Below the pieces are notes generated by a model. The model was not told the origin of the DNA. It worked only from the letters and a program-made list of their open reading frames with translations, and did not search any database. 32,000 bases of DNA from Candidatus Woesearchaeota archaeon (GTDB lineage: Archaea > Nanobdellota > Nanobdellia > Woesearchaeales > GW2011-AR4): positions 65,318-97,317 of the forward strand of contig JACOUX010000012.1 of the NCBI GenBank assembly GCA_016177615.1, written 5' to 3'. The position numbers and the translations under genes were made by a program. Positions 8,176-32,000 of this stretch are shown here, one piece after another. Positions within the stretch are counted from its first letter, which is position 1. Each line of letters opens with the position of its first letter.

Positions 8176-11100
8176 CTAGTTTACCCTTGTTTTTGCAATA
8201 ATCTCTACCACACCCGGATCAGCCAATGTTGTTATATTCCCGTAATCTGTTTTTCCTTCTGCAATTGCTTTCAGTATCCTCCTCATTATCTTCCCGCTTC
8301 TTGTCTTCGGCAGCTCATCTGCAAATTGGATCTTATCGGGCTTTGCGATTGGTCCAATGTGCTGCGCAACATACTTTCTCAACTCTTCTTTCAGTGCTTC
8401 ATCCTTTGAAATGCCTTTTTTCAAAACGACAAATGCATAGATTGCTTGCCCTTTAACTTCATGCGGATATGGAACAACCGCTGCTTCTGCAACTGCCTCA
8501 TGGCTAACCAAAGAGCTTTCAACTTCAGCGCTTCCTATCCTATGCCCGGCTACCTTAATGACGTCATCAATCCTTCCCATTACCCAGAAATAGCCATCTT
8601 CATCTATCTTTGCGCTGTCTCCGGTTAAGTAAACTCCGAATTTTTCAAAATAAGTTTTCTTGTACATGTCTGGGTTGTTCCAGATTGTCCTCAGCATCCC
8701 TGGCCATGGATTTTTTATGACAAGATAGCCGCCTTCATTGGAATTTGCCTTTGTTCCATCTTCCCTTAAGACTTCGGCAGCAATCCCGAAAAACGGCAAT
8801 GTTGCAGAGCCTGGCTTCAATGGGGTTGCTCCTGGCAAGGGGCTTATTAAAATGCCCCCTGTTTCTGTCTGCCACCATGTGTCCACAATCGGGCATTTTT
8901 TCTTTCCAATCACATTATGATACCACATCCACGCTTCCGGATTTATCGGTTCCCCAACCGTTCCCAGCAGTCTTAGCGGGCTTAAATCACATTTATTTGG
9001 CCAGTCATCGCCCTCTTTTGCCAGTGCCCTTATTGCAGTAGGCGCAGTGTAAAAAATTGTAGCTTTATGCTTTTCAATTATTCTCCAAAACCTGTCTGGC
9101 TTGGGATAAGTCGGAGAGCCTTCATACATCACAACAGTTGCCCCATTTGATAAAGGGCCATAAACAATGTATGAATGCCCGGTAATCCATCCAATGTCTG
9201 CAGTGCAGAAATAAATATCCTTGTCTTTAATGTCAAAAATATACTTAAATGTCTGGTTTGCATAAAGCAAATATCCTGCCTGTGTATGTAAAATACCTTT
9301 TGGCTTTCCTGTTGTGTTATGGGTAATAAAACCATTAACTACATAATTATGATTTTTTCCTGCTGTTAAATCATAAACAAAATCAGAATCATTGCCGATC
9401 TCGTTAATTTCTAAAATCTTCTCTAAAACCATTCCTTTAATGCCAATTAATGCCTGAATTTTATTTCTAATTAATTCCAATTTTCTTGATGTATCCCCTT
9501 CTGCACTATTAATCTTAGCATCTAAGAAAGTCCTGATTGCTATTAATCCATTTTTATCGGTCTCATTATAATAAACAAATTTGATAATTTTATTAAATTC
9601 GCCTTTCCAGTCTACTTTGATCACCTTAGTGACTTCTTTTAGTAAGGAAAAAATGGTAAATCTTTCTTTTGGGATTATTTTTCTTGATAAGAGCTTGTCC
9701 ATTAAATTCTTGAGCCTGACACCTTTATTAATATCAGAAAAATGAATTTCATTATAGAACACATGAAGAGATTCTCTCTGGGATATAATCAAATCAAAAT
9801 AGTTCGTTTCTTTTATTTTACGATTTCTTATTTGCCTTTCTCTGCTTTTTCCATGGTAAACATTGGACACAATACCAAAACGTCTAAGCAATAATTGCAC
9901 TATCCTAATGAGTTCTTCGCTGGTATTTGACAATTTAACAAAGCTACGCCCTATTGTGCCCTCTGCATCAAATATTCCCCTCAAAAACCCAGCAATACAA
10001 ACATTCTCGCTTCTTTGAATTATTTTTGGCACGCCTCTGCTTCTGCTCTTACGAATAATTTCAGAAAAATTATATTTTATGTAATTCGCAAGGATAGAAC
10101 TGTTAACCAGTAATCTTTGCCTTTCTATTTTTCTTATATTACCTGTTAGCTGTAACTCATTTTTTATTAAATCCCTATAAAACATTAGGTTGTTTTTATC
10201 CTTGTCAGTAAATATTATGCTTCTTTTATCGAGATGCCCATCACCCAAAAAATATCCGATAATCTGTGCAAAATTTGCTGTAAGGAAATTATTAATTTTT
10301 GGGATATTTTTTGGTCTATAGGTTGTTATGTTTCTGTAAGTCTTTTCTTGGTTGATATCAGGCAATTTTTGCATTTCTCCTTTTATGTTTATCTTTGACA
10401 CCACAAATACTTTATCTTCTTTATTCAGACTGCCAGCTTCCTTTTCTACTATGTTTCCATACTCATCTAAAGAAAATAATCTATGGTTAGGGGTAAAAAT
10501 ACCTTCGAATGAAGGTGTCCTCACCTTAATCAAAAGAGAGTTGCTAGGATATTTATGATGATGTGTAATACTATCTTCTGTTTGAACAAAATGGTTTGGG
10601 TCTAAATTAATTATACTCGTTTTCAGGTTATTATCATTAATGTCTTTTATTTTTACAATTTCCCCATTTGATAGCTGTATTAAAGAATTGGCGTGGCAAC
10701 ATCCGCTAGTGTAAAGTATAAATAAAGATTCTTCTGCATGCAGGAATTCAGGGGCGCATTCATCTAAAATATTTTTGTCATTTATCAATTCATGCCACCA
10801 ATAATCTCTATCATTAACCATATTAATTTTGTTTTCCGCTCTTTTTACAACTATAACATTCCTTATGCTAGGGCATTCTTGCAATGCGGCATCTGCATTT
10901 TCCTTCAGCGGAAAGATTTTTCCGTTTCTAAAGCTTCCATCAGCAGTTATTAAAATTTCTGCATTGGAATCCTGTATCCTGTCTTTTAATGCGTCAGAGC
11001 TGAAGCCTGCAAAAACAACAGAGTGGATTGCGCCAATTCTCGCGCATGCAAGCATTGCAATCGGCAATTCTGGAATCATTGGAAGGTAAATCTCAACTAT

Positions 11101-11514
11101 GTGCCCTTTTGAAATGCCCCTTCCTTTTAAGACATTAGCAAGCCTGCAGACTTCCTGAAGCAGCTGCTTATAGGTGTAATTCTTTATTTCACCTGATTCT
11201 GATTCCCAGATAAAAGCCAGCTTGTCTTTTTTACCTGATTTTATTATCCTGTCAAGGCAGTTATATGAAACATTGAGGTACCCCCCTTCAAACCATTTGA
11301 AAAACCCCATGTCGTTCCTGAAAACAACATCCCACTTTTTGAACCATTCCAGCTCATTTGCTTTTCCTGCCCAAAATGCTTCTGGATTCTCAATGGATTT
11401 TTTGTACAGCTTTGCATAAGACTGCATATTTTTGATATGGGAGCCTCTGCTGAACTCATGCGACGGATAAAAAACCCTGTTTTCCTTCAGAATTGAATCT
11501 ATATAATCAGCCAT
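8176..11514 (-). CDS. acs: Acetyl-CoA synthetase (AMP-forming) precursor, interrupted by an intein
   Basis: Exteins carry canonical Acs motifs: YTSG|TTGKPKG (split by the insert), TWWQTETGG, YLTGDSAKIDEDGYFWVMGRIDDVIKVAGHRIGSAEVE and PKTRSGKIMRR. N-extein 271 aa plus C-extein 379 aa gives 650 aa, a normal Acs length. Confidence 0.9.
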   Translation of the reverse strand: MADYIDSILKENRVFYPSHEFSRGSHIKNMQSYAKLYKKSIENPEAFWAGKANELEWFKKWDVVFRNDMGFFKWFEGGYLNVSYNCLDRIIKSGKKDKLAFIWESESGEIKNYTYKQLLQEVCRLANVLKGRGISKGHIVEIYLPMIPELPIAMLACARIGAIHSVVFAGFSSDALKDRIQDSNAEILITADGSFRNGKIFPLKENADAALQECPSIRNVIVVKRAENKINMVNDRDYWWHELINDKNILDECAPEFLHAEESLFILYTSGCCHANSLIQLSNGEIVKIKDINDNNLKTSIINLDPNHFVQTEDSITHHHKYPSNSLLIKVRTPSFEGIFTPNHRLFSLDEYGNIVEKEAGSLNKEDKVFVVSKINIKGEMQKLPDINQEKTYRNITTYRPKNIPKINNFLTANFAQIIGYFLGDGHLDKRSIIFTDKDKNNLMFYRDLIKNELQLTGNIRKIERQRLLVNSSILANYIKYNFSEIIRKSRSRGVPKIIQRSENVCIAGFLRGIFDAEGTIGRSFVKLSNTSEELIRIVQLLLRRFGIVSNVYHGKSRERQIRNRKIKETNYFDLIISQRESLHVFYNEIHFSDINKGVRLKNLMDKLLSRKIIPKERFTIFSLLKEVTKVIKVDWKGEFNKIIKFVYYNETDKNGLIAIRTFLDAKINSAEGDTSRKLELIRNKIQALIGIKGMVLEKILEINEIGNDSDFVYDLTAGKNHNYVVNGFITHNTTGKPKGILHTQAGYLLYANQTFKYIFDIKDKDIYFCTADIGWITGHSYIVYGPLSNGATVVMYEGSPTYPKPDRFWRIIEKHKATIFYTAPTAIRALAKEGDDWPNKCDLSPLRLLGTVGEPINPEAWMWYHNVIGKKKCPIVDTWWQTETGGILISPLPGATPLKPGSATLPFFGIAAEVLREDGTKANSNEGGYLVIKNPWPGMLRTIWNNPDMYKKTYFEKFGVYLTGDSAKIDEDGYFWVMGRIDDVIKVAGHRIGSAEVESSLVSHEAVAEAAVVPYPHEVKGQAIYAFVVLKKGISKDEALKEELRKYVAQHIGPIAKPDKIQFADELPKTRSGKIMRRILKAIAEGKTDYGNITTLADPGVVEIIAKTRVN
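9316..10701 (-). mobile_element. Intein of 462 aa with an embedded LAGLIDADG homing endonuclease, inserted in the Acs AMP-binding loop
   Basis: Begins with Cys (CCHANSLIQLSNGE, codon 10699-10701) and has block B TPNH. LAGLIDADG motifs are IIGYFLGDGHL and IAGFLRGIFDAEGT. It ends DFVYDLTAGKNHNYVVNGFITHN (Asn codon 9316-9318) with +1 Thr. Removal restores YTSG-TTGKPKG. Spot counts show 17/60 G+C at 9361-9420 versus 30/60 in extein 8761-8820. Confidence 0.85.
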
Positions 11515-19817: not shown

Positions 19818-19881
19818 TTGATTTTTTAACAAAACGAAGGACGTCAAAACCTTTTTAAACACTTATATATAATCCTTGATT

Positions 19882-21402
19882 ATGGGGGTCAGTAAGGTTA
19901 AAGAGCTTCTCGACATCAAAAAAGAGGCTTCTAGTGACAAGGCTGCTTCCGAATTGCAGCACAAGAAAGGAAAGTTGACTGCAAGAGAAAGGCTGAAGTA
20001 TCTTCTAGATGCTGATTCTTTTGTAGAGCTTGATGCCCTTGTGGAATTGCAGAGCAAGGAGCTTGAAGCCAAAAAGAAGGCAGGTGATGGTGTCATTGTC
20101 GGCCATGGCAAGATAAGCAAAAGGCCAGTTTATGTCTATGCCCAGGATTTTTCCTTCATGGGCGGCTCGATGGGAGAGATGCACAACAGGAAAATAGCCC
20201 ATGTCATGGAGCTGGCGCTGAAAACAGGATGCCCATGCATTGGGCTGCTTGACTCCGGGGGAGCAAGAATCCAGGAAGGGGTTGCTGCGCTCGACACAGG
20301 AGGAAAGATATTTCAGCTAAACACTTTGTCTTCGGGAGTTGTGCCTCAGATATCTGCTATTATGGGACCTTGCGCCGGAATCGCTGTTTATTCCCCTGCC
20401 TTGACAGACTTCATTTTGATGGTAAGGAAAACCAGCTACATGTTCATCACAGGGCCTGAAGTTATAAAGAATGTCACAGGCGAATCTATTGATTTTGAAG
20501 GGCTTGGAGGCTCTTCTGCCCATTCAGAAAAAAGCGGGGTTGCGCATTTTGCCGCAGATGATGAAAAGGAATGCCTTGATATGATAAAGGCTTTGTTAAG
20601 CTATCTTCCCCAGAATAATCTTGAAAACCCCACTTATTATGCCGCTGATTCGATGCGGGAGACAAAAAAGCTTGAATCAATTGTTCCTGAAGATCCAAAA
20701 AAGACTTATGACATCAAAGAAGCCATTTCAGAGATTTTTGACAGGAAAACATTTTTGGAAATTCATGCACATTATGCCCAAAATGCAGTTGTCGGGTTTG
20801 CAAGGCTAAACGGCCATGCTGTTGGCATTGTCGCGACGCAGCCTAAAGTTCTTGCGGGCTGCCTTGACATAAACTCGTCTGATAAGGTGTCAAGATTTGT
20901 GAGATTCTGCGATTGCTTTAATATCCCATTGGTAAATCTTGTTGATGTTACGGGCTACCTCCCAGGCACTTTTCAGGAGCATGGCGGAATCATTAGGCAC
21001 GGCGCGAAGGTACTTTTTGCGTATTCAGAAGCAACTGTGCCTAAAATGTCGCTTGTATTAAGAAAGGCTTACGGAGGCGCATATATTGCACTTGTCTCGA
21101 AAGAGATGGGATTTGACAAGGTCATTGCATGGCCGAATGCAGAGATCGCAGTAATGGGTGCAGAGCAGGCCGTTGGGATCATTAACAGGGATGAAATTGC
21201 CAAAAACCCAAAGTCAAAGGCAGCTCTTGCTGGGCAGTACAGGGAAAGATTCCTCAACCCTTACGTTGCTGCAAAGCTGGGCAAAATCGATATGATAATT
21301 GAACCAAAGGAAACGAGGAATGCGCTTATAAAATGCCTTGAGATGCTTTTGTCTAAGAGGGAGAAAAGGCCTGCCAAAAAGCATGGAAATATGCCGTTAT
21401 AA
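19882..21402 (+). CDS. pccB: Acyl-CoA carboxylase carboxyltransferase subunit (PccB / methylmalonyl-CoA carboxyltransferase 12S type). The track start is a TTG at 19876
   Basis: About 506 aa with VYVYAQDFSFMGGSMGEMH, two crotonase-like halves and RKAYGGAYIA. Confidence 0.9.
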   Translation: MGVSKVKELLDIKKEASSDKAASELQHKKGKLTARERLKYLLDADSFVELDALVELQSKELEAKKKAGDGVIVGHGKISKRPVYVYAQDFSFMGGSMGEMHNRKIAHVMELALKTGCPCIGLLDSGGARIQEGVAALDTGGKIFQLNTLSSGVVPQISAIMGPCAGIAVYSPALTDFILMVRKTSYMFITGPEVIKNVTGESIDFEGLGGSSAHSEKSGVAHFAADDEKECLDMIKALLSYLPQNNLENPTYYAADSMRETKKLESIVPEDPKKTYDIKEAISEIFDRKTFLEIHAHYAQNAVVGFARLNGHAVGIVATQPKVLAGCLDINSSDKVSRFVRFCDCFNIPLVNLVDVTGYLPGTFQEHGGIIRHGAKVLFAYSEATVPKMSLVLRKAYGGAYIALVSKEMGFDKVIAWPNAEIAVMGAEQAVGIINRDEIAKNPKSKAALAGQYRERFLNPYVAAKLGKIDMIIEPKETRNALIKCLEMLLSKREKRPAKKHGNMPL

Positions 21403-21432: not shown

Positions 21433-21819
21433 ATGGAAGAGCTAATTGTCAAGGTTGACGGCAAGGAATACAAGGTTTTTGTAGAGGAAAATGAAGAAGG
21501 AAAAGTAATTGTGCACTGCGGCTCTGATGTTTATGAAGTTGAGACAAAAAAGGATGCAGAGCATTCTGCAATTGAAAGGCTGCATAGGAAATCAGGAGCG
21601 GAAGCAGGAAATGAGATAGTTGCGCCGTTGCCCGGAATAATTTATGATATAAAGTCCAAAGAAGGTGATAAATTAAAGCAGGGCCATGTTTTGTTCACGC
21701 TTATGGCAATGAAGATGGAAAATGAAGTCGCTGCTCCAAGGGATTGCATTGTCAAGGAAATTAAGGTCAAGAAGAATAGCAATGTCAATAGGGGAGATGT
21801 TTTGGCAGTGATTGAATAA
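21433..21819 (+). CDS. Biotin carboxyl carrier protein
   Basis: C-terminal biotinyl domain with VAPLPG and the biotinylation motif LMAMKMENEV (Lys codon 21712-21714). Confidence 0.85.
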   Translation: MEELIVKVDGKEYKVFVEENEEGKVIVHCGSDVYEVETKKDAEHSAIERLHRKSGAEAGNEIVAPLPGIIYDIKSKEGDKLKQGHVLFTLMAMKMENEVAAPRDCIVKEIKVKKNSNVNRGDVLAVIE

Positions 21820-21838: not shown

Positions 21839-22591
21839 ATGGAAAGAAGCAAGATAAAAGGAATGATTTTTGCTGCATTGTTTGCTGCACTTACAGGCGC
21901 GGTTGCGTGGTTTAAGATCCCTCTTCCTTTCACGCCCGTCCCTATTACTTTGCAGACCTTGATGGTTCTCCTGAGCGGAGCAGCCCTCGGCGCTTATTAC
22001 GGCGCTTTGTCAATGATAGTTTACCTGATTCTAGGGGTAATTGGATTGCCTGTCTTTGCAGGCGGCTCTTCAGGAATTCCTGCGCTGCTTGGGCCTACCG
22101 GAGGCTATCTGCTCAGCTATCCTGTTGCAGCATTTGTGGTTGGGAAGATGATTGAAAAGAAAAACCTAAGCGCGTTCCTAAAATACTTTTCATTTGCTGC
22201 AGTGCTGGTTTTTGTCATGTTTGTATTTGTTGATTCTGCACTAAAAATAGGAATAATGAAGCTTGGAAAAGATGCCATGGTCAATGTACTAAGCCAGCAG
22301 CAGAGGGTTATCCTAATTGCGGTAAGCGCTGCTGTTTTGCTCGGGCTTTTATTCCTTGTATATTACTCAAAAAAATCAAAGTCATTTTCCTTGGACACCA
22401 TTCTTGCCATGTTCGCAGGCACTTTGATAATTTATTTAATGGGCTCAATTCAAGGGAAATTCGTAACAGGGTTGCCTTGGAGCGCTGTATTTGTTGGATG
22501 GGTTTTGCCGTTCATTATAGGCGACACACTAAAGCTGCTGCTTGCAGCCTGGATATCAAAAAACATTGATGTTGGCAGATATATGCAATGA
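21839..22591 (+). CDS. bioY: BioY biotin-specific ECF S-component carrying an internal insertion of about 60 aa (two extra predicted TM helices)
   Basis: PITLQTLMVLLSGAALG, GPTGGYLLSYP and LPFIIGDTLKLLLAA. At 250 aa it exceeds the roughly 190 aa usual for BioY. The extra hydrophobic stretches are FSFAAVLVFVMFVFV and VILIAVSAAVLLGLLFLVYY. Confidence 0.85.
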   Translation: MERSKIKGMIFAALFAALTGAVAWFKIPLPFTPVPITLQTLMVLLSGAALGAYYGALSMIVYLILGVIGLPVFAGGSSGIPALLGPTGGYLLSYPVAAFVVGKMIEKKNLSAFLKYFSFAAVLVFVMFVFVDSALKIGIMKLGKDAMVNVLSQQQRVILIAVSAAVLLGLLFLVYYSKKSKSFSLDTILAMFAGTLIIYLMGSIQGKFVTGLPWSAVFVGWVLPFIIGDTLKLLLAAWISKNIDVGRYMQ

Positions 22592-25046: not shown

Positions 25047-25445
25047 ATGCACAAAATCGAGCATCGCGTGATTTACGGAGACACTGATGCAGGCGGTGTT
25101 GTCTATTATGCAAATTACTTCAGGTGGTTTGAAAGCGGTAGAAGAGAGCTGTTCAGGAACCTTGGCATTGATTATAAGCTACTCCATGAAAAAGAGATAG
25201 TAAGCCCTGTCGTGGAATCGCACTGCAATTATTTCCATCCGGCAAAGTATGATGATATTGTAATTATTGAGACGAAAATCGCCGATATCAAAGAGAAAAG
25301 TGTAAAGTTTGAAAACATGGTTTTCAGGAAAAAGGGCAAAAAGCTGCTTGCATCAGGCTACACCATTAATGTTTTCGTTGATGCAAAAAAGATGAAGTCC
25401 ATCAAAATACCTGAAGATGTGAGGAAAAGGCTAAAGGTTGGCTAG
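25047..25445 (+). CDS. YbgC/4HBT-type hotdog acyl-CoA thioesterase
   Basis: VIYGDTDAGGVVYYANYFRWFESGRRELFR (catalytic Asp context) and hotdog length of 132 aa. Confidence 0.8.
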   Translation: MHKIEHRVIYGDTDAGGVVYYANYFRWFESGRRELFRNLGIDYKLLHEKEIVSPVVESHCNYFHPAKYDDIVIIETKIADIKEKSVKFENMVFRKKGKKLLASGYTINVFVDAKKMKSIKIPEDVRKRLKVG

Positions 25446-26167
25446 TATCTTATATGAACATCCCCCTCAATGATTTTTATGGTTTTCTTATTATTTAGCT
25501 TAAGCAATAAGCTGCAGTCTTCGGCAACTCCAACTGCCTGTCCGTAAAGAACTTTCTTTTTGCCCGTTGTAACTTTTATATTTTTATTGAGGGTATCGCA
25601 ATTCTCTTTCCATATTTCCAAAATTCCGTTAAATTTATTTTTATCATATATCTTTTCATAGATATTGCTAAATTCTTCTAAAATTAGTAATGATATTTTC
25701 TTGATGGCATATGTTTCGTTTTTAATCAGTTTTAGCGAAGTTGCAATATTTTTAATATCTTCAGGGAATTTATCTTGATTGACATTCAGCCCGATTCCTA
25801 CAACAACGTGATTTTCTTTTCCAAAAATGCCTTCTGTCAGAATCCCGCATAGCTTTTTGCCTTTGTAATGAACGTCATTTGGCCATTTTATTTTTACATT
25901 TATTCCTGTGATTTTTTTAATTGCATTTACGACTGAAACAGCAGCCGCAAAAGTGAGGTATTGGAGATGTTGAGCATTTTTCGGCTTTAACAAAACCGAC
26001 ATCCACAAGCCGCCTTTCGAGGAATGCCACTTCCTTTTGAATCTGCCCCTTCCTCTTGTTTGGACATCTGAAATAATGACTGCGCTGCTTAACCCTTTTT
26101 TGGCAAATTCTTTGGCCTTGTCCTGGGTCGAGGTTAAGGAGTTGAAATGAAAGAGTTTGTAATTCAT
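25442..26167 (-). CDS. birA: Biotin-protein ligase (BirA catalytic core, no N-terminal HTH)
   Basis: QTRGRGRFKRKWHSSKGGLWMS, KIKWPNDV, C-terminal SH3-like domain. Confidence 0.85.
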   Translation of the reverse strand: MNYKLFHFNSLTSTQDKAKEFAKKGLSSAVIISDVQTRGRGRFKRKWHSSKGGLWMSVLLKPKNAQHLQYLTFAAAVSVVNAIKKITGINVKIKWPNDVHYKGKKLCGILTEGIFGKENHVVVGIGLNVNQDKFPEDIKNIATSLKLIKNETYAIKKISLLILEEFSNIYEKIYDKNKFNGILEIWKENCDTLNKNIKVTTGKKKVLYGQAVGVAEDCSLLLKLNNKKTIKIIEGDVHIRY

Positions 26168-26202: not shown

Positions 26203-28116
26203 CTATTCCTCAAACATTCCTTCGTTCATCGCTTCCTGCCTTGCGGCCATTATCCAGGGATTAACCTTTCCATTGCCGTTGATTAATTGCTGATTATTTG
26301 CAAGATATTTTGCAACCGCTGTTGTTACAATCAAAACCTTTTTTTCCTTCGTCAGTGCCTCTTTCTGCGGCTTCATGCCTTTCAGCTCTTCCATGATGCT
26401 GTTGTTTTCTATGAATGATGTTGTCACATTGCCCCTTAAGAACTGCCTCTTGCTAAGGGCTGATTGGTGGAAAGGAATTGTTGTCTTGACTCCGTCAATT
26501 ACAAACTCGCCTAATGCCCTTTTCATTCTTGCAACTGCCTCATGCCTTGTGCTTCCCTGGCAGATAAGCAAGGCAACTAAGGAATCAAATTGCGGCAGGA
26601 TTTGGCAGCCGGAATAGCATGAACTGCTTATCCTTATGCCAGGACCGCCTGGGGGAAGGTAATTTACAATTGTGCCTGGAGAAGGTGCAAACTCATTTGA
26701 CGGGTCTTCTGCATTTATTCTGCATTCTATTGCATGGCTGCTCACTTTAATGTCTTCCTGCCTGTAAGCCAGCTTGGCCCCTTCAGCAAGCTTAATCTGC
26801 TCCTTAACAAGATCAATGCCTGTTACCATTTCTGTAACCCCATGCTCAACCTGTATTCTTGTATTCATCTCGATAAAAAAGAAATTTCTGTTTTTGTCAA
26901 GCAAAAATTCAACTGTTCCCGCACCTTCATACCCAATTGCCTTGACAGCCTCAACAGCCGCATTCCCCATTCTTTCCCGAAGCTCATTGTCAAGCGCAGG
27001 GCTTGGAGCCTCTTCAACAAGTTTTTGGTGCCTTCTTTGTATGCTGCAGTCCCTTTCCCAAAGATGGATAGCATTGCCATGCCTGTCAGCCAGAATCTGA
27101 AACTCTATGTGCCTCGGCTCTTCGAGGTATCTTTCAATGTATAACGAGCCGTCTCCAAAGGCATTTATTGCCTCGTTATAAGCACTATCGTAAGCATCAA
27201 AAATGTCTTCTTCCTTTGTAATGATCCTCATACCCTTTCCGCCTCCGCCGGCTGATGCCTTTAGCATGACTGGAAACCCGATTCTTCTTGCTATGTCCAA
27301 AGCGTGCTTCCTGCTCCTTAGGTCCTGCCGTAAGCCTTCTATAATAGGGACATTTGCCCTGTCCATTGCATTTTTAGCTTCTACCTTGTCACCTAGCTTT
27401 TCAATCATTTTTGATGAAGGGCCAATAAACTTGATGCCTTTTTTCTCGCATAATCTTGCGAATTTCGGATTTTGGGAGAGAAATCCATAGCCTGGGTGAA
27501 TAGCGTCGCATCCTGCCTCTATGGATATTTTCAGGATTTTTTTAATGTTGAGGTAGTTTTTTGGCTTTCCTATGTTGTATGCCCTGTCTGCAAACTTTAC
27601 AGCCAAGGAATCTTTTTCATCATCTGCATAAATAACAGCGCTTTCGATTCCCAATTCTCTGCATGCCCTTATGACACGCAAAGCTATTTCTCCCCTATTT
27701 GCTATCAGAATTCTCTTAAAGCGGCCATTGCCCGTGGGTTTTTTATCGCTTCTGTTGATTCCAAATCCGTTGGTTAGCGCTTCCAGAAAGGATTTGCCTG
27801 AAGGATGATTTAATATATGGTCAACGTGAGACTCATCAACATGAGGCAGTCTTTTTATGACACTAGTTGTTATAAAGCTGCCAACATCCCAATCCTTGGA
27901 TAAATTGAAAAAGCTCCTGCCGGGATTAACTATATGCTGCCTAAACAGGCTTTCAAAGTATCTGTAAACTACCGGGAACCTTTCCTTTATTTTAATAAAG
28001 GATGCCTTGGAAAGTGAATAAACATGCTCCATAGGCATTAATGACTTATTCAATAGGTCAACAATATATTTCTGCCTTAAAGTAAGCTCAAGGCGCCCTT
28101 TCTTGCTTTTGAGCAT
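26203..28116 (-). CDS. accC: Biotin carboxylase (AccC/PccA-type ATP-grasp) with an uncharacterised 132-aa N-terminal extension and a 67-aa C-terminal tail
   Basis: The core begins at residue 133: FKRILIANRGEIALRVIRACRELGI, MLKASAGGGGKGMRI, EMNTRIQVEHGVTE. No Met or obvious alternative start is seen at the core boundary, so the extension looks genuinely fused. Confidence 0.9.
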   Translation of the reverse strand: MLKSKKGRLELTLRQKYIVDLLNKSLMPMEHVYSLSKASFIKIKERFPVVYRYFESLFRQHIVNPGRSFFNLSKDWDVGSFITTSVIKRLPHVDESHVDHILNHPSGKSFLEALTNGFGINRSDKKPTGNGRFKRILIANRGEIALRVIRACRELGIESAVIYADDEKDSLAVKFADRAYNIGKPKNYLNIKKILKISIEAGCDAIHPGYGFLSQNPKFARLCEKKGIKFIGPSSKMIEKLGDKVEAKNAMDRANVPIIEGLRQDLRSRKHALDIARRIGFPVMLKASAGGGGKGMRIITKEEDIFDAYDSAYNEAINAFGDGSLYIERYLEEPRHIEFQILADRHGNAIHLWERDCSIQRRHQKLVEEAPSPALDNELRERMGNAAVEAVKAIGYEGAGTVEFLLDKNRNFFFIEMNTRIQVEHGVTEMVTGIDLVKEQIKLAEGAKLAYRQEDIKVSSHAIECRINAEDPSNEFAPSPGTIVNYLPPGGPGIRISSSCYSGCQILPQFDSLVALLICQGSTRHEAVARMKRALGEFVIDGVKTTIPFHQSALSKRQFLRGNVTTSFIENNSIMEELKGMKPQKEALTKEKKVLIVTTAVAKYLANNQQLINGNGKVNPWIMAARQEAMNEGMFEE

Positions 28117-28263: not shown

Positions 28264-28755
28264 ATGAGCCAATTCAATGAATTAAAAAATAAAGACGGGG
28301 AGATAGACAAAGAAAGGATAAAAAAGATAATTCCCTATAATGAGCATTTCCTTTTTATTGACAAAGTGCTCAGCCTGGAAGGAAATAAAATTGTGGCCAT
28401 AAAAGATCTAAGTGGCAAAGAAGATTTCCTGAAAGGCCATTTTGTGGGGTTTCCGATAATGCCTGGTGCTTTGACTGTTGAAGGCATGGGCCAAGCTGGA
28501 ACTTTGCTTGCGAGGGGCAATATCCCCAACCATAATGAAAAGGACGTTCTTGCTTATAGGCTTAAAGAAGTAAAATTTTCAGCGCCGATTTTCCCGCATG
28601 ATACTATAAGGTTTGAAGTTGAATCGATAGCCCAAGATGAAAGAAGTGCAATAATGCAAGGCAAAGCTTTTGTTAAAGATGCATTAGTTGCAGAAGCCCT
28701 TATGATGCTTGCAATCGTAAACAGGCAAGAGTTTAGGTCAAAGTTTGGAAAGTAG
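28264..28755 (+). CDS. FabZ/FabA-like 3-hydroxyacyl-thioester dehydratase (hotdog fold)
   Basis: IPYNEHFLFIDKVLSLEGNKIVAIKDLSGKEDFLKGHFVGFPIMPGALTVEGMGQ matches the FabZ signature LPHRyPFLLVDRV...NepfFqGHFP..PvmPGVL.iEamAQ, including the catalytic His and Glu. Confidence 0.75.
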   Translation: MSQFNELKNKDGEIDKERIKKIIPYNEHFLFIDKVLSLEGNKIVAIKDLSGKEDFLKGHFVGFPIMPGALTVEGMGQAGTLLARGNIPNHNEKDVLAYRLKEVKFSAPIFPHDTIRFEVESIAQDERSAIMQGKAFVKDALVAEALMMLAIVNRQEFRSKFGK

Positions 28756-28766
28756 CGGTGTTCTTG

Positions 28767-29702
28767 ATGTACATTAAAGGCGTAGGCATGACAAAATTCG
28801 GGGCTCAGCAGGCTCCGAGCCAAGAACTTATTTACGAAGCTGTAAACGAGGCAGTGTATGATGCTGAGTGCAGCTTAGATGACATAGATGCGATAGTAAT
28901 TTCCTCAATAGACTCTGAAAAGAACGGAGAGAGGCAAAGGCTTTTTCCTAATGTGGTGGCTAGCATTTTAAGAAAAAAAGTTCCTATGCTTAACCCTACA
29001 GCCGTTTGCGGTGGCGGAGGAGCCGCAATATGGACTGCAAACCGGCTTGATTATGGCACAATACTTGTTGTTGGGGTAGAGAAGCTCCTGACAACCACTA
29101 CAATGCAGACCACTGATGAGATAATGATGGCTGCTGAAAGGATTTATGAGCAGGCTGAGGGAATGAATTTTCCTGCTGAAAACGCCCTTGTTGCGCAGCA
29201 GTACCTACTTAAATATGGGGCTACAAGCGATGATCTTGCTTTGGTGGCTTACAAGAACCACCAGAATGCCTACAATAATCCAAAGGCTAGGTTTTATAAA
29301 AAAGAAGTTACGTTAAAGCAGATCAAAAGCTCCCCTGTTGTTGCTTCTCCTTTGAGGCTTTTTGACTGCAGCTTGTCTGTCAACGGAGCTGCGGCAGCTA
29401 TAATTACAAAAGAAAAAACGGATATTGAGATAGCCGGCTCCGCATTATGCACCGATAGGCTTTCTGCATTTGAAAGCGAGGACATGACTTCATGGGAAGC
29501 CTCAAGAAAAGCTGCAGAAGATGCCTATAAGCAGGCAGGGATAGGGCCAAAGGATATAAGCATTGCAGAGCTGCATGACGCTTTTACTTCTGTTGAGCTT
29601 ATCTCCTATGAAGACTTGGGTTTTTGCAATAAAGGCGAGGCAAAGAATATGATAAGGAAAGGCATCACCAATATTGATGGGAAGCAAATGTATTTACTGT
29701 AA
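28767..29702 (+). CDS. SCPx-type thiolase paralog A, C-terminally truncated relative to the family (possible pseudogene or recoding site). The track start is a GTG at 28758
   Basis: IKGVGMTKFG, nucleophile context NPTAVCGGGGAAIW, AELHDAFTSVELISYEDLGFCNKGEA. The ORF stops (..NIDGKQMYLL*) just before the expected LPvNtsGG...GHP...GG segment that carries the C-terminal catalytic residues. Confidence 0.7.
   Translation: MYIKGVGMTKFGAQQAPSQELIYEAVNEAVYDAECSLDDIDAIVISSIDSEKNGERQRLFPNVVASILRKKVPMLNPTAVCGGGGAAIWTANRLDYGTILVVGVEKLLTTTTMQTTDEIMMAAERIYEQAEGMNFPAENALVAQQYLLKYGATSDDLALVAYKNHQNAYNNPKARFYKKEVTLKQIKSSPVVASPLRLFDCSLSVNGAAAAIITKEKTDIEIAGSALCTDRLSAFESEDMTSWEASRKAAEDAYKQAGIGPKDISIAELHDAFTSVELISYEDLGFCNKGEAKNMIRKGITNIDGKQMYLL
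29136..29684 (+). repeat. Direct repeat copy 1 (inside thiolase A), offset 2316 nt from copy 2
   Basis: By direct comparison, 29490-29684 matches 31806-32000 at 194 of 195 nt. 29136 to about 29375 matches about 31452-31691 with clustered mismatches. 29376-29489 is strongly divergent. Confidence 0.85.
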
Positions 29703-31071
29703 AGGCAGCATAATAAAGCAGAAGGGCTCAAGATTAAAGGTGATTGGCATAACCAAAGTTACTATTCCATCTCCTATGCATCCTATAATTCCTTATAACA
29801 TCATTCTTCTTGAAGACGAATTTGGCAACAGGTTGCCAAAAAAAACAATGAGGGAGTTTAAAATAGGGGATAACTACATAGAGCAAAAGGCAAAAACTGA
29901 TGAAGCTGTCTCTGTGGTCAAGATAAAATATGATATTTACGAAGCTATCAAAGAGTCTGTTGAGCTTCTTAACAGCTTTAAATTTGATAAAGATGATAAG
30001 ATCCTAATCAAGCCGAGCATCATAGCTGCAGCATACCCGTATCAAACTGTTAACACTAATCCGGATTTCCTGAATGCACTGTTAATTCTTCTTCTCGAGT
30101 ATGGAATAAAAAAAGAGAACATAATTGTTGCAGAACAGGCGTTAATAGGCTCAAATTCAATAGACTCTGCTTCCAAAGCAGGCATAATCGATGTATGCAA
30201 AAGGCACGGAATTGAATTCGCTGATATTTCAAAAGGTCCTTTTGAGGCAGTTGAATTTGATGGTTACCCATTCAAAATTTTCAAGGAAGCGTTGAAGAGA
30301 AAGCTGGTTAATGTTCCTGTAATGAAGACTAATTTTCAGATTGGAATCTCTGGAGCAATGGAGAACCTTTCAAGGCTCGCTGATGAGCAAACTCAAAGAA
30401 AAATGTACTATGATGGCATTACTAAGGCAATTCCAAAGCTGGCAAGGGCCATCAATGCATTTACAATAGCGGATGCAAGCAATGGCATGCAAGGCCAAGG
30501 CCCGCTTTCTTTGGGCGAGCCTGCTTTCCTTAACCTTGTGTTATCTGGCAAGAATGCTGCTGCGCTTGACAAGGTTTTTTGCAACATTGCAATGCTTCAA
30601 GCTCCTTTTTATGTTAATGCAAGCCTGCCGCTTAAAGAAATTGAAGTTGTTGGAAATGAAATAGATTCATTGAAATACCCGATAAAAGCTCCTGTGGCTG
30701 ATGAAACTCCGCATCCTGACATCAAGGTTATTGACGGCAAAGCCTGCCCTGCATGCCTGAACCTGATGTATGGGCTTACATCAAGGCTTGTAGGGTTAAG
30801 GGGGGAGCAGATGAGCATAGTAATAGGCTCAATGATTACAGAAGATGTTTTGAAAGGCAAAGATAGGGTAATTGCGCTTGGCGATTGCTCTATAAGAAAA
30901 CTGCAGGAGTTGAAGTTGGATAATATTGAGAAAATAAATGAAGATATGGACCATGTTGAGCAGCTTGTTCTGCTTAAGAAGCTCCTGACAACCAAAGGAG
31001 TGCCAAAGATTAGCTCCATAGACAAGGTTAAGTCAAAAATGCAGATGCTTCTTTCGAAGGTGGTTCGCTGA
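29677..31071 (+). CDS. Fusion protein: DUF35-like (half zinc knuckle plus OB fold) N-terminus joined to a DUF362 domain with a Cys-containing C-terminal extension
   Basis: KCIYCKGS...LKVIGITKVTIPSPMHPIIPYNIILLEDEFGNRLPKK...FKIGDNY fits the DUF35 second knuckle plus OB barrel. ILIKPS, TNPDFLNALLILLLEYG, NVPVMKTNFQIGISGAMENL, TIADASNGMQGQGPLSLGEP and LVLSGKNAAALDKVFCNIAML fit the DUF362 pattern. The start region overlaps the thiolase A 3' end in another frame. Confidence 0.65.
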   Translation: MGSKCIYCKGSIIKQKGSRLKVIGITKVTIPSPMHPIIPYNIILLEDEFGNRLPKKTMREFKIGDNYIEQKAKTDEAVSVVKIKYDIYEAIKESVELLNSFKFDKDDKILIKPSIIAAAYPYQTVNTNPDFLNALLILLLEYGIKKENIIVAEQALIGSNSIDSASKAGIIDVCKRHGIEFADISKGPFEAVEFDGYPFKIFKEALKRKLVNVPVMKTNFQIGISGAMENLSRLADEQTQRKMYYDGITKAIPKLARAINAFTIADASNGMQGQGPLSLGEPAFLNLVLSGKNAAALDKVFCNIAMLQAPFYVNASLPLKEIEVVGNEIDSLKYPIKAPVADETPHPDIKVIDGKACPACLNLMYGLTSRLVGLRGEQMSIVIGSMITEDVLKGKDRVIALGDCSIRKLQELKLDNIEKINEDMDHVEQLVLLKKLLTTKGVPKISSIDKVKSKMQMLLSKVVR

Positions 31072-32000
31072 TGTTCATCAAAGGAGTTGGCATGACAAAA
31101 TTTGGAATGCAGGATGATAAAAGTCCTCATATGGTTTATGAATCAGTTATGGAAGCGCTTGATGATTCTGAGATATCCATGAACGATATAGATGCTGTTG
31201 TAATATCAAACAATGATATATTAAGCAATGGAGAGAGGCAAAGGCACAGCGCATCAATGGTAAGCAGCATGTTTCAGAAAAAGATGCCGATAATAGCTGT
31301 GCCGGCAGGATGTGCAGGCGGTGGAACAGCGCTTTGGGCTGCGGCCAATATCCAAAAGTCTGAAAATTACAGAAATATGCTTGTTATTGGATATGAAAAG
31401 ATGGTTTCAAACCTAAGCAAAAGAGTAACAGATGAGATGCTTATGGGAACAGAAAGGATTTATGAGCAGGCTGAGGGAATGAATTTTCCTGCTGAAAACG
31501 CCCTTGTTGCGCAGCAATACATGCTCAGATATGGGGCTACAAGCGATGATCTTGCTTTGGTGGCTTACAAGAACCACCAGAATGCCTACAACAATCCAAA
31601 GGCTAGGTTTTATAAGAAACAAGTTTCAATTGACGACATCAAAAGCTCCCCTGTTGTTGCTTCTCCGCTAAAGCTTTTTGACTGCAGCATTCCGGCTAAT
31701 GGTGCTGCGGCACTTGTATTGTCCAAAGACCCTAGCGATGTTGAATTAGTTGCTTCTGCATCGGAAAGCGATTACCTTGCACCTTTTGAACGGGACGACC
31801 TTATTTCATGGGAAGCCTCAAGAAAAGCTGCAGAAGATGCCTATAAGCAGGCAGGGATATGGCCAAAGGATATAAGCATTGCAGAGCTGCATGACGCTTT
31901 TACTTCTGTTGAGCTTATCTCCTATGAAGACTTGGGTTTTTGCAATAAAGGCGAGGCAAAGAATATGATAAGGAAAGGCATCACCAATATTGATGGGAAG
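31071..32000 (+). CDS. SCPx-type thiolase paralog B, 3'-partial (runs off the window; not in the supplied ORF track)
   Basis: My translation from the ATG at 31071 (overlapping the upstream TGA by 1 nt) gives 310 open codons: MFIKGVGMTKFGMQDDK...PAGCAGGGTALW...AELHDAFTSVELISYEDLGFCNKGEAKNMIRKGITNIDGK. Confidence 0.8.
   Translation, partial: MFIKGVGMTKFGMQDDKSPHMVYESVMEALDDSEISMNDIDAVVISNNDILSNGERQRHSASMVSSMFQKKMPIIAVPAGCAGGGTALWAAANIQKSENYRNMLVIGYEKMVSNLSKRVTDEMLMGTERIYEQAEGMNFPAENALVAQQYMLRYGATSDDLALVAYKNHQNAYNNPKARFYKKQVSIDDIKSSPVVASPLKLFDCSIPANGAAALVLSKDPSDVELVASASESDYLAPFERDDLISWEASRKAAEDAYKQAGIWPKDISIAELHDAFTSVELISYEDLGFCNKGEAKNMIRKGITNIDGK
31452..32000 (+). repeat. Direct repeat copy 2 (inside thiolase B); identity still running at the window edge
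   Basis: Same comparison as copy 1. The single difference in the distal block is g/t in gggata[g/t]ggcc (Gly versus Trp). Confidence 0.85.

Follow-up and report, generated by a model that had tools for sequence, protein, structure and literature searches.

What a protein domain without an assigned function does beside thiolases is the question raised by an open reading frame (ORF) in a 32,000-nucleotide stretch of a Candidatus Woesearchaeota archaeon genome (contig JACOUX010000012.1, positions 65,318 to 97,317), referred to here as the window. The ORF lies between two thiolase paralogs, and an original prediction had proposed that it joins a DUF35-like OB domain to a DUF362 domain and thereby docks the latter onto a thiolase. 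The features on which the argument draws are as follows, with positions counted from the first letter of the window.

28264..28755, plus strand: FabZ/FabA-like hot-dog dehydratase, gene 1 of the operon (Pfam FabA, 4.1e-21)
28767..29702 (also given as 28758..29702), plus strand: thiolase A of the SCP-x/archaeal type, with a truncated 3' end (Pfam Thiolase_N, and Thiolase_C_1 at model positions 6-80 of 144 only)
29674..31071, plus strand: fusion ORF, 465 codons
29674..29934, plus strand: residual DUF35-like N-domain, aa 1-87, as suggested by alignments, AlphaFold2 (AF2) models, Foldseek and hhalign
30001..30582, plus strand: DUF362 domain as covered by Pfam, aa 110-303, with a predicted LarA-like fold (PF04015, Foldseek)
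30322..30408, plus strand: motif MKTN220FQIGISGAME230NLSRLADEQTQRKMY245, from alignment with mainstream DUF362 and LarA
30583..31068, plus strand: C-terminal DUF362-protein domain, holding Cys358-x2-Cys361 (CPAC) and Cys405 (GDC), and behind it a helical tail
31071..32000, plus strand: thiolase B, the 5' 310 codons, continuing past the window end

The explanation that we regard as probable is that a DUF35-type adaptor docks the DUF362 body at the thiolase or thiolases, this body being more likely a module for binding or scaffolding. The protein belongs to a family conserved in DPANN archaea (Woesearchaeota and Nanoarchaeota), in which a putative, very divergent adaptor of this type is fused to a complete DUF362 protein.

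Conservation of the fusion ORF is far beyond chance: 297 homologs were found at E<=1e-3, and those listed are 63-73% identical over 88-99% of the length. At NCBI the protein (P0001) starts from the ATG at 29677, is 464 aa long and bears the name "DUF362 domain-containing protein"; it comes from a 97-kb contig of a Woesearchaeota metagenome-assembled genome (MAG), and in Pfam-based annotation of the family proteins DUF362 alone is listed. The Pfam model PF04015 (DUF362) matches aa 110-303 of the window protein (E 1.1e-23; 84.8 bits, the cut-off being 24) across model positions 1-199 of 200, exceeding the gathering score. The motifs CIYC, ILIKPS, VPVMKTN, DASNGMQGQGP, CPAC and GDC are all present, and the claim of a genuine, full DUF362 domain is borne out. 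Related loci were drawn from GTDB species representatives (n=39; the window genome is not among them) and all belong to Woesearchaeota/Nanoarchaeota, some of them mislabelled Methanosarcinales, except for L043, a partial match on a contig that carries the label Nitrospinota. Continuous ORFs occur across about 300 proteins and the 39 genomes, which rules out that a gene-calling error or a frameshift has joined separate DUF35 and DUF362 genes.

The N-terminal domain of the family opens with a zinc ribbon. All 24 full-length homologs, from distinct species-level genomes, start MIIRWxCxxCxKKWIYPxxKCxYCK, which extends about 19 residues beyond the window copy, and their ribbon consensus, C7-x2-C10-x10-C21-x2-C24, stands directly before the OB fold, the first knuckle being CxxC in 22 and CxxD in two. 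The single CxxC knuckle that the original prediction ascribed to this protein thus proves to be a trait of a truncated copy. The ribbon is the most conserved segment, with 81% mean pairwise identity compared to 63% for the DUF362 core. The fusion genes of two species (L034, L035) read C-E-K-D at the first knuckle, and none of the four ribbon cysteines survives in the cluster representative P0121 (SEDG...RDIYT), so not every member of the family binds zinc through the ribbon.

The fold of this domain was approached by structure prediction. An AF2 model of the full-length homolog P0090, built on a 120-sequence alignment, has a predicted local distance difference test score (pLDDT) of 83.2 and a predicted TM-score (pTM) of 0.84, and its N-terminus forms the ribbon and then five strands. 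Against the PDB, Foldseek matched the first ~100 residues of this model to DUF35 chains only (E 5e-4 to 2e-2, probability 1.00), among them BbsA (7pyt_A, 7pxp), the DUF35 domain of ChsH2 (6ok1_B/D), 6esq_E-G, 6htj and MucC (9vbt). When the isolated N-domain was modelled (pLDDT 85.5), the top PDB matches were DUF35 in 17 of 17 cases (probability 1.00, query TM-score 0.47-0.57), including also PhlB (5m3k) and 3irb, and the next match fell to a query TM-score of 0.22. Profile-profile alignment by hhalign of the N-domain with the canonical DUF35 proteins of the same genomes gave modest scores (E 1.4e-4, probability 52%; E 1.8e-3 with a less diverse profile), in register over 80 columns that take in both zinc knuckles, the P-Y motif and the OB strands. 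From these models we conclude that the N-domain is a highly divergent DUF35-fold module, comprising ribbon and OB fold, which lacks the N-terminal segment of canonical DUF35. The DUF35-like OB fold of the original prediction is thus upheld by predicted structure.

Several observations weigh against an adaptor of this kind. The Pfam DUF35 models (PF01796, PF12172) do not match the window protein at E<=1; a Pfam scan of 23 family N-domains at E<=10 returned no DUF35 and only spurious RING, HypA and MCM matches; and hidden Markov model (HMM) profiles of the N-domain and of the full-length protein found nothing significant among PDB sequences, 6htj and 6esq_E appearing at E 0.3-0.5. Without a match from sequence HMMs, the homology is argued from predicted structure and a weak profile-profile match; the stand-alone DUF35 proteins of the same genomes, taken as a control, do match both PF01796 and PF12172. 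In addition, the isolated domain has its best single match in 6htj, whose annotation is that of a translation recovery factor and nucleic-acid-binding Zn-ribbon protein, so DUF35 folds are not solely thiolase partners, and the stand-alone canonical DUF35 in the same genomes could in principle serve thiolases A and B. Since zinc ribbon plus OB fold is a simple, recurrent combination, the N-domain might bind nucleic acid or be unrelated to DUF35, its adjacency to thiolases then reflecting operon membership only. We consider this highly improbable, because the 17 top structural matches are all DUF35 proteins, most of them solved together with thiolase-fold enzymes, and because of the genomic context.

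In the related loci the order is FabZ-like dehydratase, thiolase A, fusion, a short-chain dehydrogenase/reductase (SDR; in about a third of loci) and thiolase B, usually followed by a family-III CoA-transferase, a methyltransferase and an SDR; the dehydratase holds the same place in the homologous loci that reach far enough upstream. The start of the fusion gene lies within a few nucleotides of the thiolase A stop in homologs, and the tight abutment or overlap of the two genes argues against a domain that merely travels in the operon. In the window the position between two thiolase paralogs and the overlaps are as predicted: the fusion ORF and thiolase A have 29 nt (29674-29702) in common, read in different frames, and the stop of the fusion ORF shares ATGA with the start of thiolase B (31069-31073). 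Among the closest solved relatives of thiolases A and B is 6esq_A (5.6e-54), followed by BbsB, Ltp2 and PhlC, all of them DUF35-partnered enzymes.

The association persists in six distant N-domain subfamilies with differing neighbours, with a thiolase directly upstream in five (L044, L045, L046, L047, L052) and two genes away in one (L048), and it fails where the N-domain is absent: no thiolase was found in the gene neighbourhood of the three DUF362 proteins without N-domain (P0147, P0149, P0178). The arrangements among the distant relatives are the following.

P0135, P0138 and P0130 (H/K/H motif intact): thiolase, fusion, Acetyltransf_9, in sugar-modification clusters
P0170 ("bacterium" MAG): thiolase, fusion, SDR
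P0125: FabA-like protein, thiolase, fusion, SDR
P0275 (short form): thiolase two genes upstream; fusion, BioY, SDR, FabA/nitronate monooxygenase (NMO), NMO, acyltransferases
L044, 5854-9479: a locus of the first-named trio, thiolase, DUF35-DUF362 (H/K/H) and Acetyltransf_9 acetyltransferase of the Gcn5-related (GNAT) type
L046, 3231-7798: the same trio
L047, 1476-5062: the same trio

The co-variation of N-domain and thiolase, the class of the thiolases and the structural matches together support the docking idea, and that the N-domain serves as a docking module, setting the DUF362 body on the thiolase, appears well supported by comparison and modelling, physical contact being what we infer from them. 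The clusters that hold the GNAT trios also carry NeuB, epimerases/dehydratases, GT2, a polysaccharide deacetylase and radical SAM proteins, and the trios may represent a route to sugar N-acylation of the acetoacetyl or 3-hydroxybutyryl type.

The closest known systems show both the precedent and its limits. In ChsH2-Ltp2 (6ok1), a steroid side-chain aldolase complex, a DUF35 module covalently joined to another enzyme domain docks it, as proposed here, onto a partner with the thiolase fold whose gene lies close by; 6ok1_B/D is matched by the N-domain model (E 1e-3 to 4e-3, probability 1.00), and thiolases A and B are detectably related to Ltp2. Yet the DUF35 domain of ChsH2 is C-terminal, is recognised by Pfam and is joined to a MaoC hydratase, whereas here it is N-terminal, is not recognised by Pfam and is joined to DUF362; moreover, Ltp2 is an aldolase, while the partners here look like true thiolases. 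The archaeal acetoacetyl-CoA thiolase/HMG-CoA synthase (HMGCS)/DUF35 complex (6esq/6et9) and the DUF35-mediated fatty-acid synthase complex of a ketothiolase, a ketoacyl-CoA reductase and a hydroxyacyl-CoA dehydratase of S. acidocaldarius (bioRxiv 10.1101/2024.07.05.601840) likewise have an SCP-x-type thiolase adjoining a gene for a DUF35 fold. With the former are shared 6esq_A, among the closest solved thiolases, and the matches of 6esq_E-G to the N-domain, and with the latter an SDR ketoreductase and a hot-dog dehydratase among the operon partners. Their DUF35, however, is a free protein of ~130 aa, whereas the module studied here has no N-terminal segment and carries a DUF362 body of ~380 aa; the dehydratase is FabZ-like, not MaoC; two thiolase paralogs flank the fusion; and the Woesearchaeal genomes keep the canonical HMGCS/thiolase/DUF35 trio separately. 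In the benzoylsuccinyl-CoA thiolase BbsAB and the acyltransferase complexes PhlABC and MucABC (7pxp/7pyt, 5m3k, 9vbt), the DUF35 subunits BbsA, PhlB and MucC match the N-domain, and BbsB and PhlC are relatives of thiolases A and B, but these DUF35 subunits stand alone, belong to aromatic or secondary metabolism and have no DUF362. The principle that a DUF35 adaptor, sometimes fused, docks partners on thiolase-fold enzymes is thus already known. As the original prediction had supposed, no description of a DUF35-DUF362 architecture was found in the literature searched, nor of the Woesearchaeal operon; the architecture is common, with hundreds of sequences, and has no assigned function.

The DUF362 body raises a second question, namely what is held at the thiolase. 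Over its positions ~90-430 the family profile matches DUF362 proteins at large, with 2,949 representatives of 50%-identity clusters matching at E<=1e-3. Since the match runs to ~430, the cysteine-containing tail (CPAC, GDC) singled out by the original prediction is present but unremarkable: DUF362 proteins ordinarily have this second half, their normal C-terminal domain, which lies outside the Pfam model. Mainstream DUF362 proteins end in CxxC...GxCA...GCPP; the fusion family keeps the first three of these four cysteines and has a family-specific helical tail in place of the GCPP end. We know of no such C-terminal Cys motif in LarA.

The statement that DUF362 has no established function stands as far as an assigned function is concerned, yet the domain is not without relatives. 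DUF362 and DUF2088 (LarA) are both members of Pfam clan CL0471 (PMC11770544). Foldseek matched the DUF362 body of the model to LarA 9eia (2.9e-8) and 9eid, malate racemase 7s91/6d6z and 9q3j (3e-8 to 6e-5), the racemase matches of the whole body ranging from 3e-8 to 1e-4, which predicts a two-domain, LarA-like fold. The window protein has no Pfam LarA match, and the full-length profile no match at the sequence level in the PDB. Likeness to LarA (5huq, 9eia, 7s91) extends in mainstream DUF362 to the motif H-x9-K-x14/15-H: K-T-H-x9-K-N-x14-H aligns with IESH174, K184 and H200 of 5huq (H174-x9-K184-x15-H200). We take His174 to be catalytic, Lys184 to tether the nickel-pincer nucleotide and His200 to bind nickel. 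This equivalence was drawn by motif alignment and covers His174, Lys184 and His200 in L. plantarum numbering. The Woesearchaeal family differs from LarA at all three positions, reading K-T-N...E-N...M-Y, with N220, E230 and Y245 (window numbering) invariant. As the H/K/H residues are replaced by Asn, Glu and Tyr, a LarA-type cofactor site in this family appears very unlikely from sequence.

Nevertheless, the body is under strong purifying selection, with 48 invariant columns in 120 sequences, and this constraint would also fit a catalytic activity in place of a scaffold. Fusion variants of 335-380 aa (L037, L039, L040, L041) are without the whole Cys-bearing C-terminal domain, and in the group P0140/P0143/P0146/P0151/P0163 the DUF362 motifs are strongly degenerate and the N-domain is retained.

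These features bear on what the fusion may do. In the mechanism that we favour, the N-domain would clamp the neighbouring thiolase dimer or dimers, in the way of free DUF35 in thiolase/HMGCS, BbsAB, PhlABC and MucABC and of the ChsH2 DUF35 domain on Ltp2, and would thereby hold the DUF362 body at the thiolase. There the body could bridge thiolases A and B, recruit the ketoreductase and the dehydratase, or keep the acyl-CoA product bound. Such a binding or scaffolding role is favoured by the missing H/K/H triad and by the still more degenerate short forms, and on the sequence evidence it seems more likely than that of a LarA-type enzyme of hydride transfer.

A second possibility is that catalysis is the very point of the DUF362 body, as an enzyme which pulls the unfavourable Claisen condensation forward by converting the 3-oxoacyl-CoA or its reduced or dehydrated product. 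Candidate activities are those of the missing enoyl-CoA reductase or of a 3-hydroxyacyl-CoA epimerase, acting through conserved Cys residues or through some cofactor that is not covalently bound nickel-pincer nucleotide (NPN). Two loops, residues 134-140 and 289-300 (AAYPYQAVNTNP and NGMQGQGPLxLGEPAF), are invariant and modelled with low pLDDT, as would be expected of a lid or an active site, and the LarA fold is one that performs hydride transfer (PMC11770544). The fused relatives P0130, P0135 and P0138, which directly follow a thiolase, keep H/K/H and all four C-terminal cysteines, so that the DUF362 of the ancestral fusion was probably an active one when it came to be joined to a thiolase. 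The Woesearchaeal loci yielded no enoyl reductase, a FabK-like NMO being present in L048 only. In the Woesearchaeal family, however, the residues that in LarA tether and operate the cofactor have been replaced and one of the four mainstream cysteines is lost, and the short forms, with their degenerate motifs, still keep the N-domain and the neighbouring thiolase. The literature searched on DUF362/PF04015 uses it as a LarA outgroup only, and no activity is reported there for any DUF362 protein. A catalytic role therefore seems unlikely to us, though far from negligible. The original suggestion that DUF362 acts on or with thiolase-bound acyl-CoA intermediates has comparative support in its docking part; catalysis on such intermediates is putative, and a LarA-like mechanism is unlikely now that H/K/H is gone.

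The adaptor reading is argued from the family, and the window copy itself is defective. Full homologs measure ~480-484 aa, and the window protein aligns from family residue 20 onward only: the first 19 residues (MIIRWxCxxCxKKWIYPxE) are absent, and the second zinc knuckle, CIYC, and the five-stranded OB barrel are retained. Thiolase A ends at about residue 310 of ~372, covering 1-306 of the 372 residues of the L003 ortholog, so that its final ~62 residues, the GHP...NIGG catalytic region among them, are missing. Its end reads ...NIDGK-QMYLL-stop, in which the final five codons (QMYLL*) are foreign, the orthologs reading on in thiolase sequence at this point. At 29684/29685 some 250 nt are gone: thiolase A loses ~62 codons together with its stop, and the fusion gene loses 19 codons. 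As a result thiolase A is without its catalytic C-terminus, and the fusion has neither the first zinc knuckle nor a start codon of its own. The window ORF opens with a TTG/ATG that is thiolase A sequence (aTTGATGGGAAG) in another frame; an intact fusion start would read ATGATAATAAGATGG..., and the continuation of thiolase A ...GGGAAGCTxCCTGT.... The missing 3' end of thiolase A and the first knuckle were sought elsewhere in the window and neither was found, which rules out their displacement within it.

The junction coincides with the end of a repeat shared by the two thiolase genes, the longest exact match between them.

29545..29684, plus strand: 140-nt exact repeat, copy 1, in thiolase A
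31861..32000, plus strand: 140-nt exact repeat, copy 2, in thiolase B, the last 140 nt of the window

The last base of copy 1 is also the last thiolase-derived base before the junction. Thiolases A and B are 55-60% identical over their first ~420 nt, and the 3' two-thirds hold long exact tracts; in other genomes such tracts measure 23-750 nt (750 nt in L006, 705 nt in L025; also L003, L027 and L039). This mosaic identity, recurring across genomes, points to gene conversion between the paralogs, and thiolases A and B look as if they evolve in concert by recurrent conversion between direct repeats flanking the fusion gene. The long exact repeats so produced would account for related contigs that end inside thiolase B (L004, L010, L014, L015, L024) and for L029, a 2.7-kb contig that is a circular permutation of fusion and thiolase.

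It follows that the single-knuckle start and the overlap with a short thiolase A may be an assembly chimera arising from the A/B repeat, in a genome that is in truth intact. The junction falls exactly where the 140-nt repeat ends, a boundary at which the window stops as well; related contigs often break in thiolase B or, as in L029, are permuted; and the missing ~250 nt are present in all 24 homologs with a complete gene. Against this, the junction flanks share only ~3 nt (GAA), so that a k-mer assembler should not join them without junction-spanning reads, and thiolase A is incomplete in L024 too. The junction probably exists in some DNA molecule, be it a real deletion or a library chimera. 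We find the assembly explanation nearly as credible as its opposite, and lean slightly away from it. The window copy is thus either a real deletion, leaving a pseudogenised pair, or the product of a chimeric molecule or assembly junction. Recombination between the A and B repeats as the cause of a deletion is ruled out, as the deletion runs from the end of a repeat into the fusion gene and not from repeat to repeat. Whichever origin the truncation has, the single CxxC knuckle is not a family feature, and the question concerns the window copy alone, leaving the architecture of the family unaffected.

The docked DUF362 body would act within a wider set of genes. Beside the operon, the window encodes what the sequence identifies as an acyl-CoA carboxylase set, conserved in this position.

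19876..21402: carboxyltransferase (Pfam)
21433..21819: biotin carboxyl carrier protein (BCCP; Pfam)
21839..22591: BioY (Pfam)
25442..26167, minus strand: BirA, divergent from the operon (Pfam)
26203..28116, minus strand: biotin carboxylase, divergent from the operon (Pfam)

These neighbours recur in most related loci, where biotin carboxylase and BirA are likewise divergently transcribed. The biotin carboxylase carries an N-terminal extension of ~130 aa before Biotin_carb_N, which has no Pfam match, and its extended length (622-639 aa) is kept in related loci. Farther off, an acetyl-CoA synthetase of 1112 aa (8176..11514, minus strand; ACAS_N, AMP-binding, AMP-binding_C) is split by an intein (Pfam Intein_splicing, aa 281-733), which holds a LAGLIDADG_3 homing endonuclease (aa 506-590).

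With the carboxylase set alongside, the operon would resemble an archaeal fatty-acid synthase that works independently of acyl carrier protein (ACP). A thiolase, a DUF35-like domain, a FabZ-like dehydratase and an SDR are present in the operons, the window itself stopping ahead of any SDR position; the L003 ortholog of the dehydratase scores 109.4 bits on NCBIfam FabZ, for which the cut-off is 113. The enoyl reductase, not identified, leaves the analogy incomplete. The canonical trio of HMG-CoA synthase, thiolase C and stand-alone DUF35 is encoded in the same genomes, a few kb downstream of this operon.

L016, 14445-17343: HMGCS/thiolase C/DUF35 trio
L021, 11349-13930: the same trio
L033, 11257-14272: the same trio
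L037, 3258-6125: the same trio
L042, 12431-15336: the same trio

A MaoC-like hot-dog protein follows the trio in L016, L033 and L037, and then an SDR in L033 and L037; the stand-alone DUF35 of L016 and L037 has no zinc ribbon.

A more far-reaching proposal, which we put forward as speculative and rate somewhat below even a catalytic DUF362 body, is that DUF362 proteins are LarA-like enzymes acting on thiolase products (3-oxo- or 3-hydroxyacyl-CoA), that the ancestral fusion, with H/K/H, is represented by the trios of thiolase, fusion and Acetyltransf_9, and that in Woesearchaeota the domain came to serve as the central scaffold of a hitherto unrecognised fatty-acid or polyketide synthase, which is ACP-independent, has two thiolases and is supplied by the acyl-CoA carboxylase. 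If true, the DUF35-DUF362 fusion would offer a first hold on the function of the orphan DUF362 (COG2006), and it would point to lipid-building capacity in DPANN archaea, which to our knowledge are generally thought to be without it.

The present analysis also has a bearing on how such proteins are catalogued. As DUF35 adaptors can diverge past detection by HMMs, domain-architecture databases will under-count them. DUF362/COG2006 is a large group without known function, whose sole link to the nickel-pincer enzyme LarA is at the level of the clan. That several independent subfamilies carry DUF362 on a putative thiolase-docking module, encoded right after a thiolase, gives it a testable context, in which it would work at or on the thiolase. 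The operon, with its carboxylase, FabZ-like dehydratase, two thiolases, fusion and SDR, looks like a variant of the DUF35-organised archaeal fatty-acid synthase, and thus bears on whether the DPANN archaea, with their reduced genomes, make acyl chains themselves.

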